Of a DNA stretch of 64,000 bases, positions 4,183 to 63,910 are shown piece after piece. Source of the DNA: Pyrinomonadaceae bacterium (GTDB lineage: Bacteria; Acidobacteriota; Blastocatellia; Pyrinomonadales; Pyrinomonadaceae). Location: positions 9,795-73,794 of the forward strand of contig JBKBYA010000013.1 of NCBI GenBank assembly GCA_046313635.1, read 5' to 3'. Below the pieces are notes generated by a model. The model saw only the letters and a list, made by a program, of their open reading frames with translations. It searched no databases and had not been told where the DNA came from. Both the position numbers and the translations under genes were made by a program. Position 1 is the first letter of the stretch, and the number at the start of each line of letters is the position of its first letter.

Positions 4183-5211
4183 TCATTCAAATAGAGGCGT
4201 AGCCTGCGCTGGCATGTTGAGGCCGAAGTGTTCGTAGGCCCGGCGTGTCGCCATTCGGCCGCGGGGCGTGCGGTTGAGAAAGCCGATCTGCATCAGATAG
4301 GGCTCGATGATCTCCTCGATCGAGTCCTTTTCTTCGTGGATAGACGCCGAGAGCGTGCCGAGACCGACCGGGCCGCCGTCGAATTTTTCGATGATCGTGA
4401 GCAGCATCTTGCGGTCCATCTCGTCGAGGCCGAACGTGTCGACCTCCATCCGGTCGAGCGCGGCTCGGGCGACCGGCTCGTCGATGTGGCCCTCATAATC
4501 GACCTCGGCAAAGTCGCGCACGCGGCGAAGCAGACGGTTCGCGATACGCGGCGTCCCGCGCGAGCGGCGTGCGATCTCGTGCGCTCCCGACTCGTCGATC
4601 GAGACGCCGAGAATGCCTGCCGAACGCTCGACGATCGTGCGGAGGTCTTCGATCTGGTAAAAGTCGAGATTGAAGACGATCCCGAATCTTCCGCGCAGCG
4701 GCGCCGTGATCATCCCGGGCCGCGTCGTCGCCCCGACGAGCGTGAACTTTGGCAGCTCAAGCTTGATCGAACGCGCGGCCGTGCCCTGGCCGATCATAAT
4801 GTCGAGGCTGTAATCCTCCATCGCCGGATAGAGGATCTCCTCGATCGCCGGGTTGAGACGATGGATCTCGTCGATAAAGAGCACGTCGCCCTCCTGCAGG
4901 TTGGTCAGGATGGCGGCGAGGTCGCCGGCCTTTTCGATGATCGGCCCGGCGGTCGATCTGAGCTCGGACGCCATCTCGTTGGCGACGATGTTTGACAGCG
5001 TCGTCTTGCCGACGCCGGGCGGGCCGGTCAGCAGGATGTGGTCGAGAGACTCACGGCGCTTGAGCGCGGCCTTCATAAAGACGCGGAGGTTCTCTTTGAT
5101 CTTTTTTTGCCCGATATACTCGGCCAGACGTGTCGGCCGCAGAGACAGCTCGAACTGTTTGTCCTCGTCGAGCACACCGCCGCGAACTTCTATGTTGGAA
5201 GAATTCTCCAT
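4183..5211 (-). CDS. ruvB: Holliday junction branch migration helicase RuvB
   Basis: Walker [16 protein letters not shown], RuvB C-terminal winged helix. Start trimmed to MENSSNIEV (cat at 5209-5211). Confidence 0.95.
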
Positions 5212-6888: not shown

Positions 6889-7212
6889 ATGCGTAATAGC
6901 GTTTTTGTTAAGCGGGTCTTGCCGTTCTTCCTAGCCCTTGCAGCAGGTCTGTACGTCGCAAGCTTCTTTGTGGACATAATGCCGCGATTCAATGCGAGCG
7001 ATCGCAGGATCGAGGGCTGCCGCGAGATGCAGCGACTGCGGATCGAGAATGACGAGCTGCGTCGCCAGAATCAGGACCTCCGCGACGAGGTCGATAGTTA
7101 CAGATTCAGCCGTCCGACGTCAGCGCATGGTGTGCCTCGGAGCGATTGGGGAACGTCGCGATTTGAAGTTCCGCCCCCGCCGACGGTGACGTCGCCGCGA
7201 ACCGTGAGATAG
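6889..7212 (+). CDS. Hypothetical membrane-anchored coiled-coil protein
   Basis: N-terminal TM helix (VLPFFLALAAGLYVASFFV) followed by a heptad-rich segment (MQRLRIENDELRRQNQDLRDEV). No family recognised. Confidence 0.4.
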   Translation: MRNSVFVKRVLPFFLALAAGLYVASFFVDIMPRFNASDRRIEGCREMQRLRIENDELRRQNQDLRDEVDSYRFSRPTSAHGVPRSDWGTSRFEVPPPPTVTSPRTVR

Positions 7213-7323
7213 CGGCACGCTGACCTTTCAAACTGGCCACGGATTAACCCGACCGTACGGTTGTGTTAATCTGTGGCTTCGTTTTTTGGTCCGCCCGACA
7301 TTCTGCCGTCGGCGGACGTTTCT

Positions 7324-8127
7324 ATGGACGAGTCTCAAGCCCGAAAAGAAATTGTCGAGATCGGCCGCCTGATGTACGAGCGGAGCTACGTCGTCTCGTC
7401 GGACGGCAACATCAGCGTGCGTCTTGACGATAATACCGTGCTCGCGACGCCGACGATGACCTGCAAGGGGCGAATGACCGAGAACTCGCTTGCGCTTACC
7501 GATATGGAAGGCAAGCCCCTGTCGGACAAACGGGCATCGTCCGAGCTGGCGATGCACCTCTTGATCTATCGCGAGCGGCCTGACGTCAAGGCGGTCTGTC
7601 ACGCTCACCCGCCGCACGGAACGGCTTTCGCCGTTGCCGGGCTGGCGATCGACAAGCCGATACTCTCCGAAGTGATCCTGACCCTGGGCTGCGTGCCGCT
7701 GACCGAGTACGGTACGCCTTCGACATCGGAGCTGACCGAGGCGATGAAGCCTTACGTTACGCATCACAACGCGCTCCTGATGGCCAATCACGGCGCGGTC
7801 GCGTACGGCGAAGACCTGTGGCAGGCTTGGGACCGTCTCGAGACGCTCGAGCACACCGCAAAGATCGCGATCCTCGCAAAGGCGCTCGGCGGTGCCAACG
7901 ACCTGCCGACCGATGCGATCGAAAAGCTGATCAGCATTCGCGAAAAGGCCGGTTATCTAAAAGAGAACGCCCGCTGCCAGGCCTGCGGCTACCTGCATAC
8001 GGCCGGCATCGCGTGCGACCTCGACGTCGAATATCCAGGAGCGGCGGGCTCCAACGGCGCGGCTAGAATTTCGTTCACGCGCGAAGAGCTGATCGAGCTT
8101 TTGAGCCAGGCGGCGCGATTGAGTTAA
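7324..8127 (+). CDS. Class II (FucA/RhaD-type) aldolase with C-terminal encapsulation-peptide-like extension
   Basis: Catalytic Glu context SSELAMHLLIY and Zn ligands HAHPPHG and MANHGAV. Extra ~65 aa tail with a Cys pair (CQACGYLHTAGIAC), ending in amphipathic helix FTREELIELLSQAARL. Start trimmed to MDESQARKEIVEIG. Confidence 0.85.
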   Translation: MDESQARKEIVEIGRLMYERSYVVSSDGNISVRLDDNTVLATPTMTCKGRMTENSLALTDMEGKPLSDKRASSELAMHLLIYRERPDVKAVCHAHPPHGTAFAVAGLAIDKPILSEVILTLGCVPLTEYGTPSTSELTEAMKPYVTHHNALLMANHGAVAYGEDLWQAWDRLETLEHTAKIAILAKALGGANDLPTDAIEKLISIREKAGYLKENARCQACGYLHTAGIACDLDVEYPGAAGSNGAARISFTREELIELLSQAARLS

Positions 8128-8178
8128 ACTGACTTCACTTCAAATCCCGTTTTTTAACGATTCAGGAGCAAAAACTAA

Positions 8179-8457
8179 ATGCAGGAAGCATTAGGAATGG
8201 TCGAGACCAAAGGTCTCGTGGCGATGATCGAGGCAGCCGACGCGATGGTCAAGGCCGCGAATGTGCAGCTCGTCGGTTACGAAAAGATCGGCGCCGGATT
8301 TGTCACAGCCATCGTTCGCGGTGACGTCGCCGCCGTCAAGGCCGCGACCGACGCCGGCGCCGCCGCCGCCCGCCGCGTCGGCGAGCTCGTCAGCGTACAC
8401 GTCATCCCGCGTCCGCACTCAAGCGTCGACGAGACACTGCCGGTCGTAATGAAATAG
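8179..8457 (+). CDS. Bacterial microcompartment shell protein, hexamer type (BMC-H)
   Basis: [55 protein letters not shown] is the canonical PduA/EutM/CcmK fold signature. Confidence 0.93.
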
Positions 8458-8530
8458 TGGTCAGTGATCCGTGGTCAGTGGTCAGAAATTTCTGATACTG
8501 ACCACCGACCGCTGACAACCGACCACTGAC
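8458..8530. repeat. Heptamer-array hairpin (unit TGGTCAG / CTGACCA)
   Basis: tggtcag tgatccg tggtcag tggtcag, then loop, then ctgaccaccgaccgctgacaaccgaccactgac. Fills the entire BMC-H / BMC-P gap. Confidence 0.75.
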
Positions 8531-8800
8531 ATGATCATCGGACGCATTTTAGGCACCGTCGTTTCGACGCAGAAGGACCCGCGGCTCAGCGGCAAGAAGC
8601 TGCTGATCGTAAAGCCCATTAACCTCGACGGCTCCGACCAGAGCGGATACGTCGTCGCGGTCGATACGGTCGGCGCGGGCTTTCATGAAAAGGTGATCGT
8701 CGTCGGCGGCTCGTCGGCACGCATGGCCGAGGGCAACAAGGATTGCCCGGTCGACTCCGCGATAATCGGCGTCATCGACACCATCGACTTCACTTCATAG
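8531..8800 (+). CDS. BMC vertex protein, pentamer type (BMC-P) 1
   Basis: MIIGRILGTVVSTQKDPRLSGKKLLIV..VAVDTVGAGFHEKVIVVGGSSAR..DSAIIGVID is the EutN/CcmL signature. Confidence 0.9.
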   Translation: MIIGRILGTVVSTQKDPRLSGKKLLIVKPINLDGSDQSGYVVAVDTVGAGFHEKVIVVGGSSARMAEGNKDCPVDSAIIGVIDTIDFTS

Positions 8801-8805
8801 ACCCC

Positions 8806-9087
8806 GTGCAAATTGCCCGCGTCATCGGAACCGTTGTCTCGACCGTCAAAAACGAAACGCTCGAGGGCCGAAAGTTCTTGATCGTCCAGACGCTCGACGC
8901 CGATCTCAAACCTAAGGGATCGCCGCAGGTCGCGCTCGACGCGGTCGGAGCCGGCATCGGCGAATTGGTCTTCTGGTGCCGAGGAAAGGAAGCATCGTTT
9001 CCGTTCAAGCGCGACGAGACGCCGACCGACTGCACTATCGTCGGGATCATCGACTCGGACGCGCACGTTTATAACGGCGAGGGATGA
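8806..9087 (+). CDS. BMC vertex protein, pentamer type (BMC-P) 2
   Basis: GTG start (VQIARVIGTVVSTVKNETLEGRKFLIV..DAVGAGIGELV..DCTIVGIID). The track ORF start at 8743 overlaps the previous gene and was trimmed. Confidence 0.85.
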   Translation: MQIARVIGTVVSTVKNETLEGRKFLIVQTLDADLKPKGSPQVALDAVGAGIGELVFWCRGKEASFPFKRDETPTDCTIVGIIDSDAHVYNGEG

Positions 9088-9262
9088 ATGGTAAGAGGCA
9101 AACTGTAAGCGGTAAATGTTAGGTCGCACGGCGTAAATGGTGAATCGTAAATCGTAAATGAATTGCTTACGGTCATACCAGGTAGTTGGAGTCAAAAATT
9201 TACCGTTTACCAGTTACCTCTTACCGTTCACCATTCACCACTGACACTTCACCGCTAAAGAG
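9088..9262. repeat. Heptamer-array hairpin (arm unit GGTAAAC/GGTGAAT, inner GTAAATC array), related to 58398..58875
   Basis: Left arm ggtaagaggcaaactgtaagcggtaaatg pairs with right arm atttaccgtttaccagttacctcttacc. The inner gtgaatcgtaaatcgtaaatgaattg is the reverse complement of the core of the 58.4-kb element. Confidence 0.75.
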
Positions 9263-9264
9263 AG

Positions 9265-9558
9265 ATGTTGATCGCCAGAGTCATCGGTAATGTCGTCGCG
9301 ACGCAGAAGAATCAGCGTTACGAGGGAACGCGCGTGATGCTCTGCCGGCAGATCACGCCCGAGGGCCAGGACATGGATTACACCTGCCTCGCGCTCGACT
9401 CGGTCAACGCCGGCGAAGGCGACATCGTCGTCATCGCGCAGGAAGGCTGGTCGGCATCGACCGCTTCGACCGGGCGGCCCGGAGCGGCGATCGACTCGGC
9501 GATCGTCGGTATGGTGGATTACATCGATCTGCTGGGGACCGATCTCTCCAGTGAATAG
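9265..9558 (+). CDS. BMC vertex protein, pentamer type (BMC-P) 3
   Basis: MLIARVIGNVVATQKNQRYEGTRVML..DSVNAGEGDIVVIAQ..DSAIVGMVD. Confidence 0.9.
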   Translation: MLIARVIGNVVATQKNQRYEGTRVMLCRQITPEGQDMDYTCLALDSVNAGEGDIVVIAQEGWSASTASTGRPGAAIDSAIVGMVDYIDLLGTDLSSE

Positions 9559-9621
9559 TTAGTAGTGGGTAGTTGTTAGTTAAGAAACCAACTACCCACT
9601 CTCCACTTTTAACTATTAACT
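9556..9621. repeat. Heptamer-array hairpin (unit AGTTAGT-like / AACTA-like)
   Basis: agttagt agtgggt agttgtt agttaag, then loop, then ccaactacccac..ttaactattaac. gtgggtagttg pairs with caactacccac. Confidence 0.65.
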
Positions 9622-9633
9622 GAAAAAACGTGT

Positions 9634-9993
9634 ATGGCTGACAGTATCGTCCTCCAGAAATCGATAAAGTTCGCCCTCAGGATCGTCGGTCTATACAAAT
9701 ATCTAACCGAGCAGAAACAGGAGTTCATCCTCTCCAAACAGGTTCTTCTTTCCGGAGCCTATATCGCCAAACACGTCAAAGCCGAGCTTCACGCACGCGG
9801 GCGAGACAGGTTCTCCGCGGACATGTTTGTCGCGATGCAAAAGGCTTTGGAGACAGAACTCTGGCTGCTGCTGCTGAAGGAGGCCGAATTTATCAGCTCG
9901 GACCAGTACGACTCGATGAACGCGGATTGCGTCGAGCTGATCAAGCTGACATCATCGATCTCTAAGACCTCATACGAAAATGAAACAGCGTGA
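9634..9993 (+). CDS. Four-helix-bundle protein (23S rRNA intervening-sequence protein / Avd-like family), divergent member
   Basis: 119 aa, all-helical, colinear with the clearer family member at 19150..19509 (..KFALRIVGLYKYL..LSKQVLLSGAYIA..ELWLLLLKEAEFIS..). Confidence 0.7.
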   Translation: MADSIVLQKSIKFALRIVGLYKYLTEQKQEFILSKQVLLSGAYIAKHVKAELHARGRDRFSADMFVAMQKALETELWLLLLKEAEFISSDQYDSMNADCVELIKLTSSISKTSYENETA

Positions 9994-10297
9994 ATCGCTC
10001 GCCGAAAAGATCGCCCAGCTTATCGAGTCAGAGAGGCCGCAGCCCGCTGACCTTGCGTCGATCTTTGCGAGCATCGAAAAATTGAATCATCGGCTCGACA
10101 AGCTCGAGTCCTCGCTTTCTCAGAATTCCGCAGCCCGCGTTTCCCATTCGGCGCATCCGAGCGTTGAGAGGTTCAATGTCGCCGAGGCGATCGCCGACGC
10201 TCTCTTCGACGCCAAGACAAAAGAAAAGGCCTGCACGTTCGAGCCGAACGCGAGGCCTTGCGATAACTGCGGGTTGTGCAGCTCCCGCGGATTCTAG
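9980..10297 (+). CDS. Hypothetical protein with amphipathic N-terminal helices and C-terminal Cys cluster
   Basis: Overlaps the previous gene by 14 nt (operonic). N-terminus ESLAEKIAQLIESE, C-terminus CTFEPNARPCDNCGLC (C-x9-C-x2-C-x2-C). No family recognised. Confidence 0.5.
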   Translation: MKQRESLAEKIAQLIESERPQPADLASIFASIEKLNHRLDKLESSLSQNSAARVSHSAHPSVERFNVAEAIADALFDAKTKEKACTFEPNARPCDNCGLCSSRGF

Positions 10298-10953
10298 CGA
10301 TCTGCCGGAGCGGCCGGCTGCGCGGGGGCAGCCGGTGCGGTCTGGTTTCTCCGCATTGCGTTCGGGTCGCCGATGTCGGGCGCCTGACGTGATGACGGGT
10401 CGGCCTGGAAGAACGGCTCTTCTTTGAATCCGAGCAGACCGGCCGTGAGCACCGCCGGGAAAGAATTTCTCGTCGTGTTGTAATCGGTCACCGCCGCGTT
10501 GTAATCGTCACGAGCGACCTTGATACGGTTCTCGGTGCCGGCCAGCTCGGTTTGCACGTTCATGAACGCCTCGGTCGAACGCAGCTGCGGATACGATTCC
10601 TGCAGGCTCAGTAGTCGGCCGAGAGTGCCGCCAAAACTGTTGTTTGCCTCGATGATCGCCTGGACCTGCTCGGGCGACCGTCCGCCTTCGGCCGCCGGCG
10701 GGGCTGACGTCGCGTTCAGCAGCCGTGAACGGGCCTCGGCGATCTGGCCAAAGACCTCCTGCTCCTGCACGCCTGCCATCTGCGCCGCCTTGACGAGATT
10801 GGGCACGAGATCGGCACGCCTCTGCAGTGCGCTCTCGACGTTGGCCCAGGCGCCGCGCACCTTCTGCTGCTTGGCCGTCAATTCGTTGTAACTGCAGCCG
10901 CTCAGGCCAAAGGCCGCAAGCATTACGATCGTTAACAAAAGAACTTTTTTCAT
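10294..10953 (-). CDS. LemA family lipoprotein
   Basis: Lipobox LSGC and the LemA core (VRGAWANVESALQRRADLVPNLV..AQ..LRSTEAFMNVQTELAGTENRI..AR..YN). Confidence 0.9.
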   Translation of the reverse strand: MKKVLLLTIVMLAAFGLSGCSYNELTAKQQKVRGAWANVESALQRRADLVPNLVKAAQMAGVQEQEVFGQIAEARSRLLNATSAPPAAEGGRSPEQVQAIIEANNSFGGTLGRLLSLQESYPQLRSTEAFMNVQTELAGTENRIKVARDDYNAAVTDYNTTRNSFPAVLTAGLLGFKEEPFFQADPSSRQAPDIGDPNAMRRNQTAPAAPAQPAAPADR

Positions 10954-14594: not shown

Positions 14595-14676
14595 AAAGGA
14601 TAAAGGATGAAGGATGAAGGATAAAGGGAAGAGCGGCGATCGTGCGGCCGCGGTCCCTGATCCTTCATCCTTTAAG
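14595..14676. repeat. Heptamer-array hairpin (unit AAGGATG / CATCCTT) between SRP RNA and dnaX
   Basis: aaggata aaggatg aaggatg aaggata aaggga, then a 24-nt GC loop, then tccctgatccttcatcctttaag. Confidence 0.8.
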
Positions 14677-14682
14677 AAACTG

Positions 14683-14785
14683 GTGGCTTCAGACTTACCC
14701 GCAACACAGGCTGAAATCGCTACCGTTGCTCGATTCCTCGCCTAGCGGATTCACGACTCAAACCTTGTGCGGAGCCTGAAGCCGT
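14683..14785 (-). ncRNA. ffs: Signal recognition particle RNA (small/4.5S type)
   Basis: Minus strand: 5' ggcuucag pairs with 3' cugaagcc. Domain IV motif AGG-CGA-GGAA-UCG-AGCA-ACGGUAG (GGAA tetraloop plus AGCA). ffs immediately upstream of dnaX is a common synteny. Confidence 0.75.
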
Positions 14786-14791
14786 ATGTGA

Positions 14792-14869
14792 ATTTTGGAT
14801 TTTAGATTTTGGATTGTCGAAAAACGGTCGCTTACTTCAATCCGAAATCCGAAATCTAAAATCCAAAAT
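14792..14869. repeat. Heptamer-array hairpin (unit ATTTTGG / CCGAAAT) between tRNA-Ser and SRP RNA
   Basis: attttgg attttag attttgg attg, then loop, then caatccgaaatccgaaatctaaaatccaaaat. Confidence 0.8.
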
Positions 14870-14874
14870 CGATC

Positions 14875-14965
14875 TGGCGGAAAGGGTGGGATTCGAACCC
14901 ACGGTACCCTTTTGAGGTACACAGCATTTCCAGTGCTGCCAGTTCAACCACTCCTGCACCTTTCC
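14875..14965 (-). tRNA. tRNA-Ser (anticodon GGA), CCA encoded
   Basis: Minus strand GGAAAGGTGCAGGAGTGGTTGAACTGGCAGCACTGGAAATGCTG..long variable arm..GGGTTCGAATCCCACCCTTTCCGCCA. Anticodon loop CU-GGA-AA. Confidence 0.9.
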
Positions 14966-14966
14966 G

Positions 14967-15048
14967 GGAATTAAAAATTCCAAATTTCAAATTCCAAATT
15001 TAGGCTTGCCTCGATCAATCTGGAATTTGGAATTTGGAATCCTTAATC
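14967..15048. repeat. Heptamer-array hairpin (unit AAATTCC / GGAATTT) between the two tRNA-Ser genes
   Basis: aaattcc aaatttc aaattcc aaattta, then loop, then tggaatt tggaatt tggaatc. Same unit type as 24592..24636. Confidence 0.8.
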
Positions 15049-15200: not shown

Positions 15201-15365
15201 GTCAGAACCGCCCCGCGTAAGCGGGCGGGTCGAACCATCGGCGACTTATTTGTCGGGGAAATACGCGAGAGATCGCGAAAGCAAATTGGGCGAAAGAGCC
15301 CGCCCGCTTGCGCGGGTGGTTCTGACGGGCAAAAGAGCCCGCCCGCTTACGCGGGTGGTTCTGAC
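15201..15365. repeat. REP-like palindromic elements: three ~31-bp copies (one inverted, two tandem)
   Basis: gtcagaaccgccccgcGTAAgcgggcgggtc (15201-15231) is the reverse complement of gagcccgcccgcttgcgcgggtggttctgac (15296-15326) and gagcccgcccgcttacgcgggtggttctgac (15335-15365). Each has a CCCGC/GCGGG stem with a GNRA-type loop. Confidence 0.8.
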
Positions 15366-15826
15366 CGGCGTCTTGCTCTGAAAAACTCCTGCATCAGCGA
15401 GCGGCATTCTTCCTGCAGCACTCCGCCGCGGATCTCAAAGCGGTGATTCAACAGTTCGCTCGTTCCGATGCCGAAATGCGTGACCAGTCCGCCAAAGCGC
15501 TCGTCGGCAGCGCCGTAAACCACGCGTGCGACCCGCGCACCGACGAGAGCACCGGCGCACATTACGCACGGTTCGATGGTCGTGTAGAGCGTTGTGCCGG
15601 TGAGGCGATAGTTGCCGAGCTTGCGCGCGGCCTCGCGCAGGGCGAGGACCTCGGCGTGGGCGGTCGGGTCGCTCTCGGCGATCGTACGATTCGAGGCCGA
15701 TGCGAGCAACTCACCATTCTCGTCGACAACGCACGCTCCGACGGGCACCTCGTCGAGGTCGCGAGCCTCGCGTGCGCGTGCGAGGGCCTCGCGCATCCAG
15801 ATCTCGTCTTCGATCGTCTCGTGCAT
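15347..15826 (-). CDS. tadA: tRNA adenosine(34) deaminase
   Basis: HAEVLALREA and TIEPCVMCAGAL zinc motifs. Start trimmed to MHETIEDEIWM (cat 15824-15826). The last ~7 codons and the stop lie inside REP copy C. Confidence 0.9.
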   Translation of the reverse strand: MHETIEDEIWMREALARAREARDLDEVPVGACVVDENGELLASASNRTIAESDPTAHAEVLALREAARKLGNYRLTGTTLYTTIEPCVMCAGALVGARVARVVYGAADERFGGLVTHFGIGTSELLNHRFEIRGGVLQEECRSLMQEFFRARRRSEPPA

Positions 15827-19149: not shown

Positions 19150-19509
19150 ATGAAAGACTTTAGGAAGTTAGCCGTTTGGCAGAAGTCCCATGAATTAGCT
19201 TTGGCGGTCTACTCGGTCACCGGCACTTTTCCGAGAGAAGAGATGTTTGGACTGACAAGCCAATTGAGACGTGCAACAGCGTCGATTCCTGCAAATATCG
19301 CGGAAGGTTGCGGTAAAGCGACGGATTCGGACTTTGCGCGTTTCCTTCAGATCGCGTTTGGTTCGGCGTGCGAAGTTGAATATCACTTAATCCTATCGCG
19401 GGATCTGCGGTACATCGGCGGAGAGAAATACGAGGAATTAAACACTGGCCTCGTCGAGATAAAGAGAATGCTCGCGTCGCTGATTTCCACGGTCAGGGCT
19501 GAACGCTGA
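19150..19509 (+). CDS. Four-helix-bundle protein (23S rRNA intervening-sequence protein / Avd-like family)
   Basis: KLAVWQKSHELALAVYSVTGTFPREEMFGLTSQLRRATASIPANIAEGCGK..FLQIAFGSACEVEYHLILSRDL is a textbook family signature. Confidence 0.9.
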   Translation: MKDFRKLAVWQKSHELALAVYSVTGTFPREEMFGLTSQLRRATASIPANIAEGCGKATDSDFARFLQIAFGSACEVEYHLILSRDLRYIGGEKYEELNTGLVEIKRMLASLISTVRAER

Positions 19510-19528
19510 CCGCTGAAGGCTGAGAGCT
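19491..19528. repeat. Heptamer array (unit GCTGACC), right flank; overlaps the last codons and stop of the four-helix-bundle gene
   Basis: ggtcagg gctgaac gctgacc gctgaag gctgaga gct. The TGA stop lies within the gctgacc unit. Confidence 0.7.
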
Positions 19529-38740: not shown

Positions 38741-38897
38741 GGGTTGGTTGTTTGTTCGTGGTTCGTTGATCGTGGTTCGTTGTTCGTTGTTCGTGGTTCG
38801 TTGTCAACCTGCGAACAATCAGCGATGAGCCACGACCGATTTACTACGAACAACAAACGACGATCAACGATCAACGATCGACGATCAACGAACAGCC
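38741..38897. repeat. Heptamer-array hairpin (unit GTTCGTT/GTTCGTG; complement CGATCAA/CGAACAA)
   Basis: gttcgtg gttcgtt gatcgtg gttcgtt gttcgtt gttcgtg gttcgtt, then loop, then ..cgaacaa caaacga cgatcaa cgatcaa cgatcga cgatcaa cgaacag. Confidence 0.8.
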
Positions 38898-54672: not shown

Positions 54673-56112
54673 GTGACAAATTCACCGACCCCGAACGCGA
54701 GTTACAGTCTCACGCTGCGCGTCCGAATTCACAATAAGCCCGGCAAACTCGGCGAGATCACGACCGCCATCGGCAGGGCCGGCGGCGATATCGAGGGTAT
54801 CGATATCGTCAGCGTCGGCAAGGACTTTTTGATCCGCGACATCACCGTGAATGCGGCCAGCGAATCGCACGACCAACAGATCGTCGCGTCGCTCGACGAC
54901 ATCGACGGCGTCGAGGTCGTCAATGTCAGCGACCGCACATTCCTGATGCATCTCGGCGGCAAGATCGAGACCGTGTCGAAGATGCCGCTCAAGACGCGCT
55001 CGGACCTCTCGATGGCGTACACGCCCGGCGTCGCGCGTGTCTGCGAGGCGATCCGTAAAGATCCCGAAAAGGTCTTTAATCTCACCATCAAAAAGAACAC
55101 TGTCGCCGTCGTCTCGGACGGCACCGCCGTGCTCGGCCTCGGCGATATCGGCCCGGCGGCGGCGATGCCCGTGATGGAAGGCAAATGCCAGCTCTTTAAA
55201 GAATTCGGCGGCGTCGACGCCTTCCCGATCTGTCTCAGCACAAAAGATCCGCACGAGATCGTCCAGACCATCAAGCGGATCTCGGTCGCATTCGGCGGCA
55301 TCAATCTCGAGGACATCTCGGCGCCGCGGTGCTTCGAGATCGAGGAGCGTCTAAAGGAGGAGCTCGACATCCCGGTCTTTCACGACGATCAGCACGGCAC
55401 CGCCGTGGTCGTGCTCGCGGCGCTCATCAACGCACTCAAGATCGTCGGCAAAAAGATCGACGAGATCAAGGTCGTCGTCAACGGCGTCGGCGCCGCCGGC
55501 GTCGCCTGCTCAAAGATCGTGATGGCGGCCGGCGTCAAGAATATCGTCGGCTGCGACCAGACCGGCGCGCTCTACGAGGGCCGCACCGAGCATATGAACT
55601 GGGTCAAGGACTGGTACGCGCGAAACACCAACCCCGACCGCGAGACCGGCAGCATTCACGACGTGATCAAGGGGGCCGACGTGTTCTTTGGGCTCTCTGT
55701 GCCCGGCGTGATCGGCCAGGACGACCTCAAGGCGATGGCCAAGGACCCGATCGTGTTCGCGATGGCAAATCCGATCCCTGAGATAATGCCCGAGGACGCC
55801 GCCGGGCACGTCGCGGTGATGGCGACCGGGAGGTCGGACTACCCGAACCAGATCAACAACGTCCTTTGCTTTCCGGGCATTTTCCGCGGCGCGCTCAACT
55901 GCCGGGCCTCGCGCATCAACGAGGCGATGAAGCTCGCGGCCGCCCACGCTATCGCCGGCATCATCACCGACTCCGAGCTGCATCCCGATTACATTATCCC
56001 GTCCGTCTTTGATAAGCGTGTCGGCGAGGCCGTTGCCGACGGCGTCGAGGAGGCCGCGTACGCGTCGGGCGTCGCGCGGCGCGAGCGGACGACGACCGAA
56101 TCGGTGATCTGA
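54673..56112 (+). CDS. NAD(P)-dependent malic enzyme with N-terminal ACT domain
   Basis: ACT domain, then YTPGVA, VSDGTAVLGLGDIG, FGGINLEDI, FHDDQHGTA, NGVGAAG. Confidence 0.93.
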   Translation: MTNSPTPNASYSLTLRVRIHNKPGKLGEITTAIGRAGGDIEGIDIVSVGKDFLIRDITVNAASESHDQQIVASLDDIDGVEVVNVSDRTFLMHLGGKIETVSKMPLKTRSDLSMAYTPGVARVCEAIRKDPEKVFNLTIKKNTVAVVSDGTAVLGLGDIGPAAAMPVMEGKCQLFKEFGGVDAFPICLSTKDPHEIVQTIKRISVAFGGINLEDISAPRCFEIEERLKEELDIPVFHDDQHGTAVVVLAALINALKIVGKKIDEIKVVVNGVGAAGVACSKIVMAAGVKNIVGCDQTGALYEGRTEHMNWVKDWYARNTNPDRETGSIHDVIKGADVFFGLSVPGVIGQDDLKAMAKDPIVFAMANPIPEIMPEDAAGHVAVMATGRSDYPNQINNVLCFPGIFRGALNCRASRINEAMKLAAAHAIAGIITDSELHPDYIIPSVFDKRVGEAVADGVEEAAYASGVARRERTTTESVI

Positions 56113-58397: not shown

Positions 58398-58875
58398 TCG
58401 TTAGTGGTGAAGCGTGAAGCGTGAAGTGTGAACGGTGAATGGTGAGTGGTGAACGGTGAACGGTAAACGGTAAATGGTGAACGGTGAACGGTAAACGGTA
58501 AACGGTAAACGGTAAACGGTAAGCGGTAAACGGTAAATGGTGAACGGTGAACGGTAAATGGTGAACGGTGAACGGTAAACGGTAAGTGGTAAATGAAGGA
58601 TGCCATTCACAATTCACGATTTACGAGTCACGATTCACTATCCGCTCAAGTCTGTCCATTCACCATTTACCATTTACCGCTTACCGTTTATGAACGGTGA
58701 ACGGTGAACGGTAAACGGTAAGTGGTAAATGAAGGATGCCATTCACAATTCACGATTTACGATTTACGAGTCACGATCCGCTCAAAGCTGTCCATTTACC
58801 ATTTACCATTTACCACTTACCGTTTACCACTCACCACTTACCGTTTACCACTCACCACTCACCCTTCACCGTTAA
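58398..58875. repeat. Duplicated composite heptamer-array element (arms GGTGAAC/GGTAAAC, conserved ~65-nt core) between the kinase and regulator genes
   Basis: Unit 1: ~190-nt GGT[A/G]AAC array, core aaggatgccattcacaattcacgatttacgagtcacgat..ccgctcaa..ctgtcc, then a 33-nt GTTTACC-type array. Unit 2 (58690-58875): 40-nt array, the same core, then an 80-nt complementary array. 58470-58530 holds six near-perfect cggtaaa heptamers. Confidence 0.9.
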
Positions 58876-60700
58876 CCACGGGTAGCTCTATCGTAAACCT
58901 GCTTCCGCGCCCCGATCCGCTTTCGGCGGTGACGCGGCCGCCGTGGGCTTCGGCGATCTGTTTTACGAGCGAGAGGCCGAGGCCGCTGCCGTGGATCTGC
59001 GCGTCGACGACCGTTCTTGACCTGTAAAAAGGCTCGAATACATGTTTCAGATCAGCGCTCGATATGCCGATCCCGCGGTCTTCGACGACGATCTTCACCG
59101 TGCCGCCGCCGTTCGCCGCCGAGACCCTGATCCATCTTTGCCCGTTGGCGTACTTGACCGAGTTCGCGATGAGGTTTTGGATCGCCCTATTCAATGCCGC
59201 CTCGTCGGCCGAGACCGACGGCAGCGCCGGCGGGATGTCGGTCTCGACCGCAAAGCCCTCAGACTCGAGCAGCGGACGGCTGTCGTCGACGGCCCGTGCG
59301 ACAAGCGACGCGATGTCGACCGGGCGAAAGTTGTACTTCTGCCGGCCCGAATTTGCCCCGGCAAATTCGAGTATCTGCTCGACCATCGCCGAAAGTTTTT
59401 TACCCTCGCCCTTGATCAGCCGGCCGTAACGCGCGACCTGTGATCCGTCTTTTGCGACGCCGTCGGCGAGATTTTCGCCGGCGGAGTAGATCACCGCGAG
59501 CGGCGTGCGGAACTCGTGCGAGACGCTCGAGACAAAATCGACCTGCCGCTGGGCGAAAAGCCTCGCCCGCGCAGACGAGACGATGATCCCCGCGACCGCC
59601 GCGCCGAGCAGAGCGAGAATGCCAAATCCGACACCAAGATTTCGCCATTCGGTCTTCGCCACCGACGCGGCGACCGAACCGTCGCGGTGCCGCGCAGTGA
59701 GCGTCCACGGCGGCGGCTCGCCCGTTCTCGTTCGGGTCGCGATCATCGACGCTCTCGCCGGACCGTTCTGCTTCATCTCGACGGTCACCTGGCCGGTCTT
59801 TGCAACGCGCTTTTCGATCTGGCTGAACGAGTGCGTTTCGAGCCGCGAATCAAAAACTACGGTGCCCGGCCTTTTATCGCCGCCGCCGATCGACGAGAGC
59901 ACGTCGCGATTAGAAAAGAGAATGAAGTTCTCCGCCGACAGATCGAAGAGCCTCGCCCGCGCATCGCCGTCGCCGGCTGCTGCGTCGACCGGCACAGATC
60001 GATATTCGCTGCGGCCCGCGCCGTCGTCGACCGATATCGCAAACTCGCCGTCGCCAAAATGCCGGTCGGTGAGATCCGGCAGCAGGCGTCCGGTGATGGT
60101 CGACTTGTCGAGGCGGATCGCGAGATAGCCGACGGTCTTTGGTCTGGGGAGGGGCGGCGACGCTTCGTCGCCGCGCGTGCGGCGGATAAAGATGCGCTCG
60201 ATCTTTGGCGGAGCCTCGCTGATCGGCAGCACGAGCGTCGAGATGTCGGCGAGGACCGGCGTGAACGTATCGCCCGCGCCGATGCGCGAGCGCAGCGTGC
60301 GAAGCTCGTCGTTCCACGCTGCCTGCTCAAACCGGGCGCCGTCGGCGCCGCTGTGAACGAGAGGTTCGGCATCTTCGCTTTCGGCGTCGAAATATACAAA
60401 GCCCGCGACGAGCGTCGGGTACTGCGTCTTCGACCGCCAGTAGGCCAGTCGCTCGTTGAACTCGCTCCAGTCGCGGTCTCGCCACGACAGCGCGTCGGTC
60501 TGAAAGTTGAAATACGCGCCCTGCATCTCGCGATTGAAATCGCTCGCAAATCGCGTCGTCGCTTCGTGCACGCGCCGCTGCATCTTTTCGGCCTCGCTCG
60601 CGCTGATCTGCCGCTGCCAGCGGAACTGCAGCGCGCCGAGCAGCAACAGCAGTCCGACGAGCGCGGCAAAGAGCAGGATTGTCGAGAGCGATCGCTTCAT
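58859..60700 (-). CDS. Sensor histidine kinase (HisKA + HATPase_c)
   Basis: H-box FVSSVSHEFRTPL, N-box NLIANSVKY, G-boxes DRGIGI and GSGLGLS. Start trimmed to MKRSLSTILL. The last 6 codons (VVNGEG) and the stop derive from the repeat. Confidence 0.9.
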   Translation of the reverse strand: MKRSLSTILLFAALVGLLLLLGALQFRWQRQISASEAEKMQRRVHEATTRFASDFNREMQGAYFNFQTDALSWRDRDWSEFNERLAYWRSKTQYPTLVAGFVYFDAESEDAEPLVHSGADGARFEQAAWNDELRTLRSRIGAGDTFTPVLADISTLVLPISEAPPKIERIFIRRTRGDEASPPLPRPKTVGYLAIRLDKSTITGRLLPDLTDRHFGDGEFAISVDDGAGRSEYRSVPVDAAAGDGDARARLFDLSAENFILFSNRDVLSSIGGGDKRPGTVVFDSRLETHSFSQIEKRVAKTGQVTVEMKQNGPARASMIATRTRTGEPPPWTLTARHRDGSVAASVAKTEWRNLGVGFGILALLGAAVAGIIVSSARARLFAQRQVDFVSSVSHEFRTPLAVIYSAGENLADGVAKDGSQVARYGRLIKGEGKKLSAMVEQILEFAGANSGRQKYNFRPVDIASLVARAVDDSRPLLESEGFAVETDIPPALPSVSADEAALNRAIQNLIANSVKYANGQRWIRVSAANGGGTVKIVVEDRGIGISSADLKHVFEPFYRSRTVVDAQIHGSGLGLSLVKQIAEAHGGRVTAESGSGRGSRFTIELPVVNGEG

Positions 60701-62167: not shown

Positions 62168-63910
62168 TTGAAGCAAAACCAGCTCAAGCGCATCGAACGC
62201 CTCGCCACGCGGCGCGTCGCTCCCGATCAGATCATTTCACCCGAGCTTGCACGGCAGATGACCGAGATCTCGCACGAGACCAATCGGCAGGTCGGCGTAC
62301 TGCTCAATCGCAAGGGCCAGGTCGAGTACGTTATGGTCGGCACAGCGAAGCAGATCGAGATGCCCGACTTTGGCCGCGCCCGCGTGTCGGCCGACCGCTT
62401 CCGCGGACTCCGATGCGTTCACACGCACCTGCTCGGCGAAAAGCTCACGCAGGACGACCTCACCGACCTCGCCCTGCTGCGCCTCGACCTGATGTCGATC
62501 ATCCAGGTCGATAGATCAAACGGCCTGCCCGGTCTCGTCCACTCGGCGCACCTCGTACCGGCCCAGCCGGGTTCCGAGTTCGGGGTTCAGCGTTCCGGGG
62601 CGAACGGGCACTCTGAACTCGAAACCCCGAACTCTGAACTGCGAGGCTCTGACTCGCTCCCGTACGAATTCCTCGAGCCCGCGATCCCGGCCCATCTCGA
62701 GACCGACTTTCTCTCGCTGATCAACTCGCTCGAGGACGAGATGGCACGCGTCCGCCAAACGGCGCGCAGCCGGCAGGCAAACCGCGACCGGGCGATCCTG
62801 ATCAGCGTCACGACCGGCAGCACGGACGATGCCGCGGAGTCGCTCGCGGAGCTCGAGGAGCTCGCCGCGTCGGCGGGCGTCTTTGTCCTCGACAAGATCA
62901 TCCAGCGCCGCCCGCAGATCGATCCGCGAACCGTGCTCGGCCGCGGCAAGCTCGACGAGCTGCTCATCCGCTCGATGCGGCTCGGCGCGGATATGATCAT
63001 CTTTGACGCCGAGCTCGGCCCGGCGCAGGTGCGTTCGCTCTCGGAGGCGACCGAGCTCAAGGTCATCGACCGTCCGCAGCTCATCCTCGACATCTTTGCG
63101 CAGCGCGCGCAGAGCCGCGAGGGCAAGCTGCAGGTCGAGCTGGCGCAGCTCAAGTATCTTTTGCCCCGGCTGGTCGTCGGACAAAACTCCGCATTCTCGC
63201 GGCTTGCCGGCGGCATCGGCGGACGCGGGCCCGGCGAGACCAAGCTCGAGACAGACCGGCGCCGAGTGCGCGACCGCATCTCGCAATTGGAACGCGCCGT
63301 CGACGACCTCGGCCGCCAGCGGCAGGAGCGCCGCAAGAACCGCGTTCAAAAGCACCTGCCGATCATCTCGCTCGTCGGCTACACCAACGCCGGAAAATCG
63401 ACCCTGCTCAACGCGCTCACGCAATCGGACGTTTACGCCGAGCAGAAGATGTTCGCGACGCTCGACCCGACGTCGCGCCGACTGCGTCTGCCGTACGAGC
63501 AGGAGGTCATCATCAACGACACGGTCGGCTTCATTCGCGATCTGCCCGCAGCACTCGTCTCGGCGTTTCGCGCGACGCTCGAGGAGATCGCCGACAGCGA
63601 CCTGCTGGTTCACGTCGTCGACGCGTCAAATCCGCGCGTCGAGCAGCAGATCGGATCGGTCGAGGGCATTCTCAAGGAACTCTCTCTCGACCGCATTCCG
63701 CAGGTGCTCGTGCTGAACAAGTCAGACCTCATCGCGGCCGACGATCTCGACGCGCTGCGGCGCAGGGTGATGCTTGACAGGAGTGCGGAATGCGTGGCAA
63801 TTTCAGCTATCCGCCGGGATACCCTCCGTCCGCTGGTGGAAGCGATGGCAGTCAGGATAGGCATGTTCTCGGTACCGAGCGACGAGGTCGCGGCGGCCGG
63901 CAATCTTTAG
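62168..63910 (+). CDS. hflX: GTPase HflX (long form with ~190-aa N-terminal extension)
   Basis: HflX N-domain (..LILDIFAQRAQSREGKLQVELAQLKYLLPRL) and G-domain (GYTNAGKST, DTVGF, NKSD). TTG start assumed. Confidence 0.92.
   Translation: MKQNQLKRIERLATRRVAPDQIISPELARQMTEISHETNRQVGVLLNRKGQVEYVMVGTAKQIEMPDFGRARVSADRFRGLRCVHTHLLGEKLTQDDLTDLALLRLDLMSIIQVDRSNGLPGLVHSAHLVPAQPGSEFGVQRSGANGHSELETPNSELRGSDSLPYEFLEPAIPAHLETDFLSLINSLEDEMARVRQTARSRQANRDRAILISVTTGSTDDAAESLAELEELAASAGVFVLDKIIQRRPQIDPRTVLGRGKLDELLIRSMRLGADMIIFDAELGPAQVRSLSEATELKVIDRPQLILDIFAQRAQSREGKLQVELAQLKYLLPRLVVGQNSAFSRLAGGIGGRGPGETKLETDRRRVRDRISQLERAVDDLGRQRQERRKNRVQKHLPIISLVGYTNAGKSTLLNALTQSDVYAEQKMFATLDPTSRRLRLPYEQEVIINDTVGFIRDLPAALVSAFRATLEEIADSDLLVHVVDASNPRVEQQIGSVEGILKELSLDRIPQVLVLNKSDLIAADDLDALRRRVMLDRSAECVAISAIRRDTLRPLVEAMAVRIGMFSVPSDEVAAAGNL
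62568..62646. repeat. Heptamer-array hairpin embedded IN FRAME in hflX
   Basis: gggttcc gagttcg gggttca gcgttcc, then loop ggggcgaacgggcac, then tctgaac tcgaaac cccgaac tctgaac. gagttcggggtt pairs with aaccccgaactc. Encodes PGSEFGVQRSGANGHSELETPNSELRGS. Confidence 0.8.

Follow-up and report, generated by a model that had tools for sequence, protein, structure and literature searches.

The region 7324–10297 of the window, that is, of the whole 64-kb stretch of DNA analyzed, very probably constitutes, judging from its gene content, a main locus of the ACI type of bacterial microcompartment (BMC), which is already catalogued in Acidobacteria. The DNA comes from a hot-spring metagenome, and its host is a Pyrinomonadaceae-like acidobacterium. 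The locus is a further conserved copy of the catalogued type, in a reduced form, as the hydroxyacid dehydrogenase was not found in cis.

Assignment to the ACI Type

The ACI type was described by Sutter, Melnicki, Schulz, Woyke, and Kerfeld (2021; PMC8217296), with 125 loci. It is restricted to Acidobacteria from soil and hot springs, mainly subdivisions 4 and 6 and including the class Blastocatellia, and a Blastocatellia BMC-P carries the label "ACI (main)" in the catalogue tree (PMC8217296). According to this catalogue, the main locus encodes a PF00596 aldolase whose C-terminus bears an encapsulation peptide, an adjacent BMC-P triplet drawn from three clades (green, grey, and orange), at least one typical BMC-H, and a short cargo protein that has its encapsulation peptide at the N-terminus and, at the C-terminus, conserved cysteines, of which three are mentioned. 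It also holds a hydroxyacid dehydrogenase (PF00389/PF02826) and further uncharacterized proteins, one of them with three conserved histidines (PMC8217296). The AldDh, with an encapsulation peptide near its C-terminus, sits in "most" genomes on a satellite locus, defined as a distal locus without the defining pair of BMC-H plus BMC-P (PMC8217296). No experimental study of ACI turned up in the literature.

An earlier note on this DNA had suggested a comparison with published BMC catalogues, and the ACI entry matched item by item, apart from the hydroxyacid dehydrogenase and the histidine protein. The window shares with ACI the phylum, a PF00596 aldolase with an encapsulation-peptide-like tail, the BMC-P triplet, one BMC-H, a cysteine protein with an N-terminal encapsulation-peptide-like helix, and the lack of an AldDh in the main locus. 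It differs in that neither the hydroxyacid dehydrogenase nor the His-rich protein was found in the window, or within 10 kb in the relatives, in that the cysteine protein has four conserved cysteines where the catalogue mentions three, and in that a four-helix-bundle gene is inserted. The recognition of a microcompartment locus by the earlier note was borne out by Pfam, which identifies the aldolase, the BMC-H, and the three BMC-P on a single + strand run. One of its proposals, a satellite shell locus, does not hold: BMC-H and three BMC-P lie together, which does not agree with the definition of a satellite and makes this a main locus by that of the catalogue. The features are as follows.

6889..7212, + strand: TM/coiled-coil ORF, 107 aa (transmembrane helix at the N-terminus, coiled coil, Pro-rich end)
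7237..7289, + strand: leader stem-loop, arms CCACGGATTAAC (7237–7248) and GTTAATCTGTGG (7265–7276), 16-nt spacer, T-rich tract
7324..8127, + strand: class II (Zn) aldolase-superfamily enzyme, 267 aa (PF00596, E 4.5e-48)
8164..8168, + strand: Shine-Dalgarno AGGAG, 10 nt upstream of the BMC-H start codon, the only strong one of the operon
8179..8457, + strand: BMC-H, hexameric facet shell protein, 92 aa (PF00936, E 8e-31)
8455..8528, + strand: heptamer-array hairpin (AGTGGTC and complement), MFE −39.8 kcal/mol, z −7.2
8531..8800, + strand: BMC-P paralog 1 (P1), pentameric vertex protein, 89 aa (PF03319, E 2.2e-30)
8806..9087, + strand: BMC-P paralog 2 (P2), 93 aa, GTG start (PF03319, E 1.7e-30)
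9132..9232, + strand: two imperfect heptamer arrays, CGTAAAT ×4 and TTTACCG ×5, in the 177-nt P2–P3 gap
9265..9558, + strand: BMC-P paralog 3 (P3), 97 aa, more divergent than P1 and P2 (PF03319, E 1.1e-20)
9556..9622, + strand: P3/four-helix-bundle hairpin, MFE −22.1 kcal/mol, z −3.1
9634..9993, + strand: four-helix-bundle protein of the 23S rRNA IVS protein family (PF05635, E 1.8e-14; TIGR02436)
9980..10297, + strand: CysEP, putative short ACI cargo or accessory protein, 105 aa (conserved motif, synteny)

Shell Proteins

BMC-H scores above the EutM equivalog cut-off (141.9 vs. 133 bits), matches the PduA, EutM, and HO-5815 structures with E values of 1e-36 to 1e-39, and shows the edge lysine (DAMVK) and the PRPH motif that are usual in a typical BMC-H. 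The three adjacent PF03319 genes form the triplet of the ACI type and are told apart by their identity and position: the paralogs are 35–40% identical to one another, whereas identity to positional orthologs reaches about 91% for P1 and about 88% for both P2 and P3. These three paralogs are ancient. P1 matches CcmL and the BMC-P of the HO microcompartment (E 1e-19 to 1e-20). The start of P2, 5 nt past the P1 stop codon, was inferred from the MQIARVIG of its orthologs. The 1:3 hexamer to pentamer ratio, previously regarded as odd, is a known gene pattern and is no guide to stoichiometry.

The Aldolase-Family Enzyme

The ATG at 7324 fits the 266- to 267-aa length of the homologs. Glu74, His93, His95, and His156 are invariant, and in an alignment the closest solved structure has identical residues at these positions; the catalytic Glu and the Zn ligands are intact, as had been noted. 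The Pfam domain stops at residue 182. The tail beyond it contains an invariant Cys218-x2-Cys221-x3-His225-x5-Cys231 motif (nt 7975–8016), followed by a variable linker and, at its terminus, the amphipathic helix FTREELIELLSQAARL (residues 251–266, nt 8074–8121). This segment is among the top hydrophobic-moment windows of the protein, residues 253–264 are predicted to be helical in a model that is otherwise poor, and F251, R253, E255–I257, L259, and L260 are conserved. Both the hydrophobic moment and the conserved positions agree with the previous description of this C-terminal helix, which by these features is encapsulation-peptide-like.

The Cysteine Protein and the Four-Helix-Bundle Gene

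CysEP begins with an amphipathic helix, SLAEKIAQLIES, followed by a second long helix, and AF2 places helices at residues 7–17, 22–53, and 60–81. Its C-terminus carries the invariant motif HPS...EKAC-x8-PCDxC-x2-C-SRGF with four cysteines (C-x8-C-x2-C-x2-C). It has no Pfam or NCBIfam match. We identified more than 5,400 homologs, and 175 clusters at 50% identity, all of 44–212 aa; relatives occur in at least 582 species genomes. On the strength of its motifs and position, we take this ORF to be the short, encapsulation-peptide-bearing cargo protein of the ACI type. It had been listed as a mere Cys-rich neighbor; its gene lies beside P3 in all 90 orthologous loci and is a conserved member of the locus.

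In the window, the four-helix-bundle gene, whose product matches TIGR02436 with 57 bits (cut-off 24), separates P3 from CysEP. This gene occupies the P3/CysEP junction in only 15 of the 90 orthologous loci, and P3 and CysEP abut in 66. It is thus an insertion into the operon and no microcompartment component; the earlier note had correctly recorded it as a neighbor but missed its status as an insertion.

Conservation of the Locus

The closest homologs, with 83–91% identity, are named Pyrinomonadaceae, Pyrinomonadales, Blastocatellia, Chloracidobacterium, Acidobacteria, or Acidobacteriota, and the names of these homologs and of the syntenic loci place the host in the Acidobacteria. In about 90 Pyrinomonadaceae/Blastocatellia loci, the order TM-ORF, aldolase, BMC-H, P1, P2, P3, CysEP is kept between ruvA and LemA. 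Median identity is 98% for BMC-H (81 loci) and 88–91% for P1–P3, against 71% for ruvA. These values reflect strong purifying selection on the shell genes.

The TM-ORF (6889–7212) has positional homologs at 32–49% identity in relatives, and a conserved stem-loop stands between it and the operon. It has no Pfam or NCBIfam match. In the window, it is the sole candidate for the three-histidine protein of the catalogue, and its alignment with these homologs reveals no His pattern that is conserved. We regard it as a conserved neighbor on the upstream side, with uncertain membership of the organelle locus. Some relatives have a different small ORF before the aldolase, which the window lacks.

Expression Signals

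The leader stem-loop is found once per locus, always ahead of the first gene of the aldolase operon, and its arms give two matches in the window (0.07 expected). Among 42 aligned loci, 98.6% of the cells of its 15-bp stem are paired; many of the pairs are G-U, and these work on the + strand only. The element has no Rfam match. At the head of the operon, it is a candidate for a terminator/attenuator or an operator.

A Shine-Dalgarno core precedes BMC-H in 81 of 81 loci. The corresponding counts are 0/82 for P1, 5/82 for P2, 7/89 for P3, 1/70 for the aldolase, and 1/33 for CysEP. The gap between the aldolase and BMC-H genes, which holds the ribosome-binding site, is unstructured (z +0.3), whereas the hairpin 8455–8528 begins at the stop codon of BMC-H and stops 2 nt short of the P1 start codon. 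A hairpin with z ≤ −3 occurs at this junction in 59 of 74 loci, with a different heptamer each time. Shell stoichiometry is probably set at the level of expression: only BMC-H has a strong Shine-Dalgarno, in an unstructured leader, the BMC-P genes have none, and a stable hairpin has the P1 start codon at its base. The proposal that the hairpins could set differential expression of the shell components is thus plausible. However, a heptamer hairpin does not occupy every gap, as had been claimed, but three of five: BMC-H/P1, P2/P3, and P3/four-helix bundle. The P2–P3 arrays form a weak imperfect hairpin (z only −1.4 for the fold of 9100–9245), and the P1/P2 gap is 5 nt long. About 30 period-7 arrays occur throughout the 64-kb window, also around the SRP RNA and tRNA genes; the heptamer hairpins are not specific to the shell operon.

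Partner Enzymes and a Proposed Mechanism

Among the window ORFs of at least 200 aa, none corresponds to PF00171, PF06130, PF00389/PF02826, acetate kinase, or BMC-T, which extends to the whole window the previous observation that AldDh, PTAC, acetate kinase, and BMC-T are missing nearby. Likewise, AldDh, PTAC, and hydroxyacid dehydrogenase were not found in the 10 kb around about 90 orthologous loci. For the hydroxyacid dehydrogenase, the Pfam tables of 10 syntenic loci contained none, and tblastn gave no match in 90 loci, a weak test given the approximate LdhA query. A search with BMC-H homologs, a CysEP domain-fusion test, and a scan for the leader element did not detect an AldDh satellite for this genome or this locus family. 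As the locus belongs to the ACI type, the lack of partner enzymes in cis is normal. The usual metabolosome core is indeed absent in cis, as the earlier note had stated.

By this scheme, BMC-H would tile the facets and BMC-P would cap the vertices, and the aldolase and the cysteine protein may be drawn into the shell through their amphipathic helices. The enzyme would split a phosphorylated keto-sugar or 3-oxo-acid into DHAP and a reactive product. By analogy with what the catalogue reports for ACI, this product might be handled by an encapsulation-peptide-tagged AldDh encoded on a distant satellite locus.

Alternative Readings and Comparison with Other Microcompartments

The "aldolase" might be a 3-oxo-tetronate-4-phosphate decarboxylase resembling OtnC/YgbL, or else a related superfamily member that is no aldolase, in which case the pathway would be four-carbon acid-sugar catabolism or another DHAP-forming reaction and not fuculose/rhamnulose phosphate cleavage. 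Its best NCBIfam match is NF043034 OxoTetrPhDc (151.5 bits), ahead of the FucA models NF040649 (111.7 bits, cut-off 250) and TIGR01086 (67.8 bits, cut-off 400), and its best PDB match is 6voq, which like 6vop reaches E 3e-30 at about 35% identity, against 1e-16 to 5e-21 for FucA entries. The label "FucA-type" given previously is therefore not retained, as the top-scoring model and structures are OtnC/YgbL-like and the enzyme stays below every equivalog cut-off. The OtnC/YgbL reading is nevertheless rather unlikely: the NF043034 score is well under the cut-off of 250, the catalogue places the ACI aldolase nearest those of HO and MIC3 (PMC8217296), and an AldDh partner implies an aldehyde product. 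OtnC/YgbL-like enzymes and FucA share with the window enzyme the fold family and the conserved Glu and three His, but only about 35% identity, and they lack the 60-aa tail with its Cys3His motif and putative targeting helix. Absence of AldDh, PTAC, and hydroxyacid dehydrogenase from the 64-kb window and within 10 kb in about 90 loci would also fit an autonomous minimal compartment in Pyrinomonadaceae, with nothing beyond the shell, the aldolase-family enzyme, and the Cys4 protein, which without an AldDh partner would be no metabolosome in the usual sense. The ACI satellite is reported in "most", not all, genomes (PMC8217296), and both cargo candidates have conserved metal-type motifs. We consider such a compartment improbable, because ACI main loci as a rule have no AldDh in cis; the catalogue locates it elsewhere. 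We give little credence, too, to its extended form, a self-contained ACI organelle of Pyrinomonadaceae that would comprise, besides one hexamer and three pentamers, an OtnC-like class II aldolase-family enzyme carrying the Cys3His tail and a Cys4 metalloprotein, but no AldDh, and in which Shine-Dalgarno and hairpin signals would set the shell ratio and a lineage-specific leader stem-loop would govern expression; if true, its chemistry would lie outside the aldehyde-oxidizing metabolosome paradigm.

The HO microcompartment of Haliangium ochraceum, a structural model shell, resembles the ACI locus by its BMC-P triplet and by an aldolase type reported as most similar, and its shell structures 5djb/5v74 match the window BMC-H and BMC-P (E 1e-36 and 7e-19). 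It differs by the presence of BMC-T proteins and AldDh within the locus and by its myxobacterial host. The PVM metabolosome shares with the window a class II aldolase as signature enzyme and a BMC-P triplet, a combination that the earlier note had taken as a PVM hallmark and that would suggest a fragment of a PVM or PVM-like fucose/rhamnose metabolosome, satellite to a complete PVM locus elsewhere. The triplet, however, is also found in the HO, ACI, and FRAG types (PMC8217296). PVM loci of Planctomycetes and Verrucomicrobia combine AldDh, PTAC, acetate kinase, and more shell types and lack the cysteine protein bearing an encapsulation peptide, an ACI feature; moreover, the ACI aldolase is reported to be closer to that of HO/MIC3 than to that of PVM. 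BMC-H and BMC-P in one locus define a main locus, and a PVM fragment is very improbable. PVM or PVM-like identity was rejected, as the window contains no AldDh, PTAC, or acetate kinase among its ORFs of at least 200 aa and the host lineage is Acidobacteria, not Planctomycetes or Verrucomicrobia or the gut taxa in which PVM-like loci occur. An unrelated gene inserted in the operon and partner enzymes missing in cis could also mark a decaying, functionless relic. This is scarcely credible: all six genes are intact, conservation of the shell proteins in about 90 species exceeds that of the housekeeping genes on the flanks, and the relatives of CysEP extend to the 582 or more species genomes mentioned above.

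The Locus Is a Reduced ACI Microcompartment

ORF listing combined with Pfam and NCBIfam scans of the window, DNA that originates from a hot-springs metagenome, placed the aldolase and shell genes in a single plus-strand run, as the earlier note had described.

Components of the locus (window coordinates)
7237–7289, + strand: leader element directly 5' of the operon, with sequence-conserved arms, a variable loop, and a T-rich tract
7324–8127, + strand: class II aldolase-family protein (PF00596); the ATG at 7324 fits homologues of 266–267 aa
8179–8457, + strand: hexamer shell protein BMC-H (PF00936)
8531–8800, + strand: pentamer shell protein BMC-P, paralog P1 (PF03319)
8806–9087, + strand: BMC-P, paralog P2 (PF03319); GTG start, 5 nt past the P1 stop codon
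9265–9558, + strand: BMC-P, paralog P3 (PF03319)
9634–9993, + strand: four-helix-bundle gene (PF05635/TIGR02436)
9980–10297, + strand: CysEP, a Cys-rich ORF of 105 aa with no family match
10294–10953, strand opposite to the operon: LemA

The four-helix-bundle gene and the CysEP start overlap by 14 nt. Among the window ORFs of at least 200 aa, the Pfam and NCBIfam scans revealed no AldDh, PTAC, acetate kinase, 2-hydroxyacid dehydrogenase, or BMC-T, confirming that the usual core enzymes are absent near the locus.

The Acidobacteria-type class that the note had envisaged exists in the published catalogue of BMC loci as the ACI type. It comprises 125 loci, exclusively from Acidobacteria, and combines one typical BMC-H, a BMC-P triplet whose genes are adjacent in nearly every case, a PF00596 aldolase bearing an encapsulation peptide (EP) at its C-terminus, and a very short protein with an EP at the N-terminus and conserved cysteines at the C-terminus; more unknown proteins and a hydroxyacid dehydrogenase are also included (Sutter et al. 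2021, PMC8217296). All these shell and EP signatures are shared by the window locus, but the hydroxyacid dehydrogenase of ACI is absent in cis. The region is thus a reduced member of this already known type. In the catalogue tree file, one Blastocatellia BMC-P is labeled "ACI (main)" (PMC8217296). The absent core, the BMC-P triplet, and the 1:3 hexamer to pentamer gene ratio had been taken as oddities; each is expected, because the locus matches the catalogued ACI features. Loci mostly carry one BMC-P or a triplet, and triplets occur in the HO, PVM, ACI, and FRAG types (PMC8217296). Neither the PVM frame nor the term "satellite" applies to this locus. The earlier observation was largely right and its interpretation right in part only. 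An aldolase and a BMC-P triplet with "missing core enzymes" in an acidobacterial genome represent the normal ACI layout and no anomaly.

Putative Cargo Proteins

In the aldolase-family protein, Glu74, His93, His95, and His156 do not vary and line up with identical residues in the nearest solved structure, in agreement with the intact catalytic Glu and Zn ligands reported previously. The "FucA-type" label did not hold. The top NCBIfam model is 3-oxo-tetronate-4-phosphate decarboxylase (151 bits versus a cut-off of 250), and the FucA models score only 68–112 bits versus cut-offs of 250–400. Likewise, the top PDB matches are 6voq, which we take to be YgbL of Klebsiella, and 6vop, both deposited as "Aldolase" (E 3e-30, ~35% identity across 182 residues), and the FucA entries reach E values of 1e-16 to 5e-21. 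Judged by these model and structure scores, "class II aldolase superfamily" is the safe label. The C-terminal extension ends, as proposed, in a conserved helix (F251–L266), which follows an invariant C218-x2-C221-x3-H225-x5-C231 motif and a variable linker. The AlphaFold model has a mean pLDDT of 45 because the alignment is shallow.

CysEP had been listed as a mere neighbour; the features of its homologues and its synteny place it within the locus. The homologues have an N-terminal amphipathic helix, LAEKIAxLLE, followed by a second long helix. Their C-terminus, HPS..F..EA..D....EKAC-x8-PCDxC-x2-C-SRGF, is invariant and contains four cysteines. In a 90%-identity database, the family numbers over 5,400 members, all of them about 100 aa long and lacking any Pfam domain. 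An exhaustive profile search of 50%-identity representatives yielded 175 clusters, all of 44–212 aa, in each of which the conserved module forms the C-terminus and is in no case joined to a large enzyme. A profile scan of genomes found relatives in at least 582 species genomes, of which the top 80 all belong to Pyrinomonadaceae, Pyrinomonadales, Blastocatellia, Chloracidobacterium, or Acidobacteriota MAGs. ACI compartments are widespread among soil and hot-spring Acidobacteria. AlphaFold predicts helices at residues 7–17, 22–53, and 60–81 and an unstructured Cys tail (mean pLDDT 69), and such disorder would be compatible with metal-dependent folding. Metal binding may matter in ACI according to the catalogue (PMC8217296), a remark that the Cys3His tail of the aldolase and the Cys4 protein support. 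A test of whether the C-terminal domain of CysEP corresponds to the small domain that trails the EP in the ACI AldDh was negative: the best 150 hits measure 44–212 aa and include no fusion.

Conservation and Insertions

An exact-match look-up of BMC-H retrieved ten syntenic metagenome or MAG loci, and tblastn extended the comparison to about 90 loci. Their order is ruvB, Rce1, ruvA (minus strand), an optional Rex, and a TM/coiled-coil ORF upstream; aldolase, BMC-H, P1, P2, P3, and CysEP in the core; and LemA, an unknown gene, TPM, and dnaX (minus strand) downstream. Over these loci, the median identity of orthologues to the window gene is 98% for BMC-H, 91% for P1, 88% for P2, 88% for P3, 83% for the aldolase, 74% for LemA, 71% for ruvA, and 55% for CysEP. 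The pairwise identity of P1, P2, and P3 is only 35–40%, as against 88–91% to their orthologues, so they are ancient paralogs, each under strong constraint. A relic is contradicted by this constraint; the locus is functional.

Unrelated genes occupy the same operon junctions and differ between species.

Operon junctions in the orthologous loci of relatives (L001–L090)
Aldolase/BMC-H: uninterrupted in 66/77; Uma2 and/or Band_7 in 8, further insertions in 3 (window equivalent 8128–8178)
BMC-H/P1: uninterrupted in 83/83; no inserts
P1/P2: uninterrupted in 32/79; DoxX in 26, DUF2059 in 4, both in 2, a 1-kb secreted TPR/CarboxypepD_reg protein in 15 (window equivalent 8801–8805)
P2/P3: uninterrupted in 81/83; further insertions in 2
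P3/CysEP: uninterrupted in 66/90; four-helix-bundle gene in 15, other insertions in 9 (window equivalent 9559–9979)

The window operon is therefore the bare core with a single four-helix-bundle insertion. [quoted passage not shown] A second window ORF (19150–19509), directly followed by a heptamer array (19498–19523), has a translation resembling the TIGR02436 four-helix-bundle protein, and several relatives (L014, L031, L055, and L070) have more copies close to dnaX.

Other features were observed around these loci. A Rex-type redox-sensing regulator (PF06971 + PF02629), possibly a regulator of the organelle, occurs between ruvA and the TM/coiled-coil ORF in L001, L002, L003, L005–L008, and many of L011–L090; it is absent from the window. 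At 4876–6198 of L005, ruvB is interrupted by an intein that carries a LAGLIDADG endonuclease domain. At 54673–56112, the window encodes a malic enzyme whose N-terminus carries an ACT domain; an ACT-domain HMM is common to the ACI and MIC3 loci of the catalogue (PMC8217296).

A Proposed Mechanism

By inference from the family, the shell would be built of BMC-H and BMC-P, and the aldolase-family enzyme and the Cys protein would be packaged through their helices. Cleavage by the enzyme would give DHAP and a reactive product, and a distal AldDh would complete the pathway. A homology search for satellite hexamers, run with BMC-H, returned among the matches listed only main-locus orthologues of at least 88% identity, and EutE and LdhA probes, a weak test, had no tblastn match in the 90 loci. 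The alternative is an autonomous minimal compartment working without AldDh; the catalogue places the ACI AldDh on a satellite locus (PMC8217296), and we consider autonomy improbable. Completion by a distal AldDh is the reading that we retain.

Literature searches found no experimental studies of ACI compartments. With six genes making up the shell-plus-cargo operon within 3 kb, the Pyrinomonadaceae locus is, to our knowledge, about the smallest complete operon of this kind. It is consequently a handy candidate for reconstitution, for tests of the role of the BMC-P triplet, and for shell engineering.

Hairpins and Translation Signals

The claim of a hairpin in every gap was correct for three of the gaps. 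Inverted heptamer arrays form a stable hairpin between BMC-H and P1 (−39.8 kcal/mol, z −7.2) and another between P3 and the four-helix-bundle gene (z −3.1), and the P2/P3 hairpin is imperfect (z −1.4), whereas the aldolase/BMC-H gap is unstructured. Similar hairpins made of other heptamers occur window-wide (e.g., 14785–14875, within 14595–15040; 38750–38897; and 62560–62645), as does a long array of ~470 nt (58406–58879). More of them separate the SRP RNA from two tRNA genes, and the heptamer varies from site to site. Heptamer hairpins are a genome-wide intergenic feature, and their specificity to the shell operon is excluded because the same kind is present across the window. Another repeat, a 39-nt unit in 2.1 copies (93% match), adjoins a tRNA gene at 15288–15369.

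The BMC-H/P1 gap measures at least 40 nt in 74/81 loci, and 59 of these 74 have a hairpin with z ≤ −3, whose heptamer differs from lineage to lineage; for the aldolase/BMC-H gap this holds in 1/63 loci. In the window, the P1 start codon lies 2 nt beyond the end of the 3' arm. A Shine–Dalgarno core precedes BMC-H in all 81 loci; the counts are 0/82 for P1, 5/82 for P2, 7/89 for P3, 1/70 for the aldolase, and 1/33 for CysEP. These signals suggest, as a refinement of the earlier idea of differential shell-gene expression, that the operon may be built to translate the facet protein at a high and the vertex proteins at a low level. Scans with consensus promoters and terminators gave nothing exceeding chance. 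The Shine–Dalgarno core on BMC-H alone, the hairpin whose position behind BMC-H is conserved, and the leader stem-loop with its conserved sequence go beyond the catalogue as testable regulatory hypotheses.

A Conserved Leader Stem-Loop

The consensus of the leader is CCACAG(R)TTAA(Y), 16–17 nt, GTTAATCTGTGG, and a T-rich tract. Its arms in the window are CCACAGRTTAAY and GTTAATCTGTGG, and it is also found in L002–L090 upstream of the aldolase operon. In 42 aligned loci, 98.6% of the cells of the 15-bp stem are paired, and two pairs show double changes. As G-U pairs are frequent, the pairing is specific to the plus strand. Each locus has one leader, which always lies past the TM/coiled-coil ORF and ahead of the operon's first gene, even where another small gene precedes the aldolase. 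In most loci the right arm is 9–15 nt upstream of the ATG; in the window this distance is 47 nt. The element has no match in Rfam. It could terminate the upstream gene, act as an attenuator, or be an operator that overlaps an extended −10-like TGtGTTAAT.

A metagenome scan with the leader gave 120 stretches, with the aldolase directly downstream in 100 and truncated main loci in 8; neither a second regulon member nor AldDh was found among them. The remaining 12 are unrelated AT-rich contexts with longer perfect palindromes. In such contigs (L108, L119, L127, L150, L172, L173, L187, and others), identical 12-nt arms belong to palindromes of the form CCACAGATTAACAGATT...AATCTGTTAATCTGTGG located between unrelated genes.
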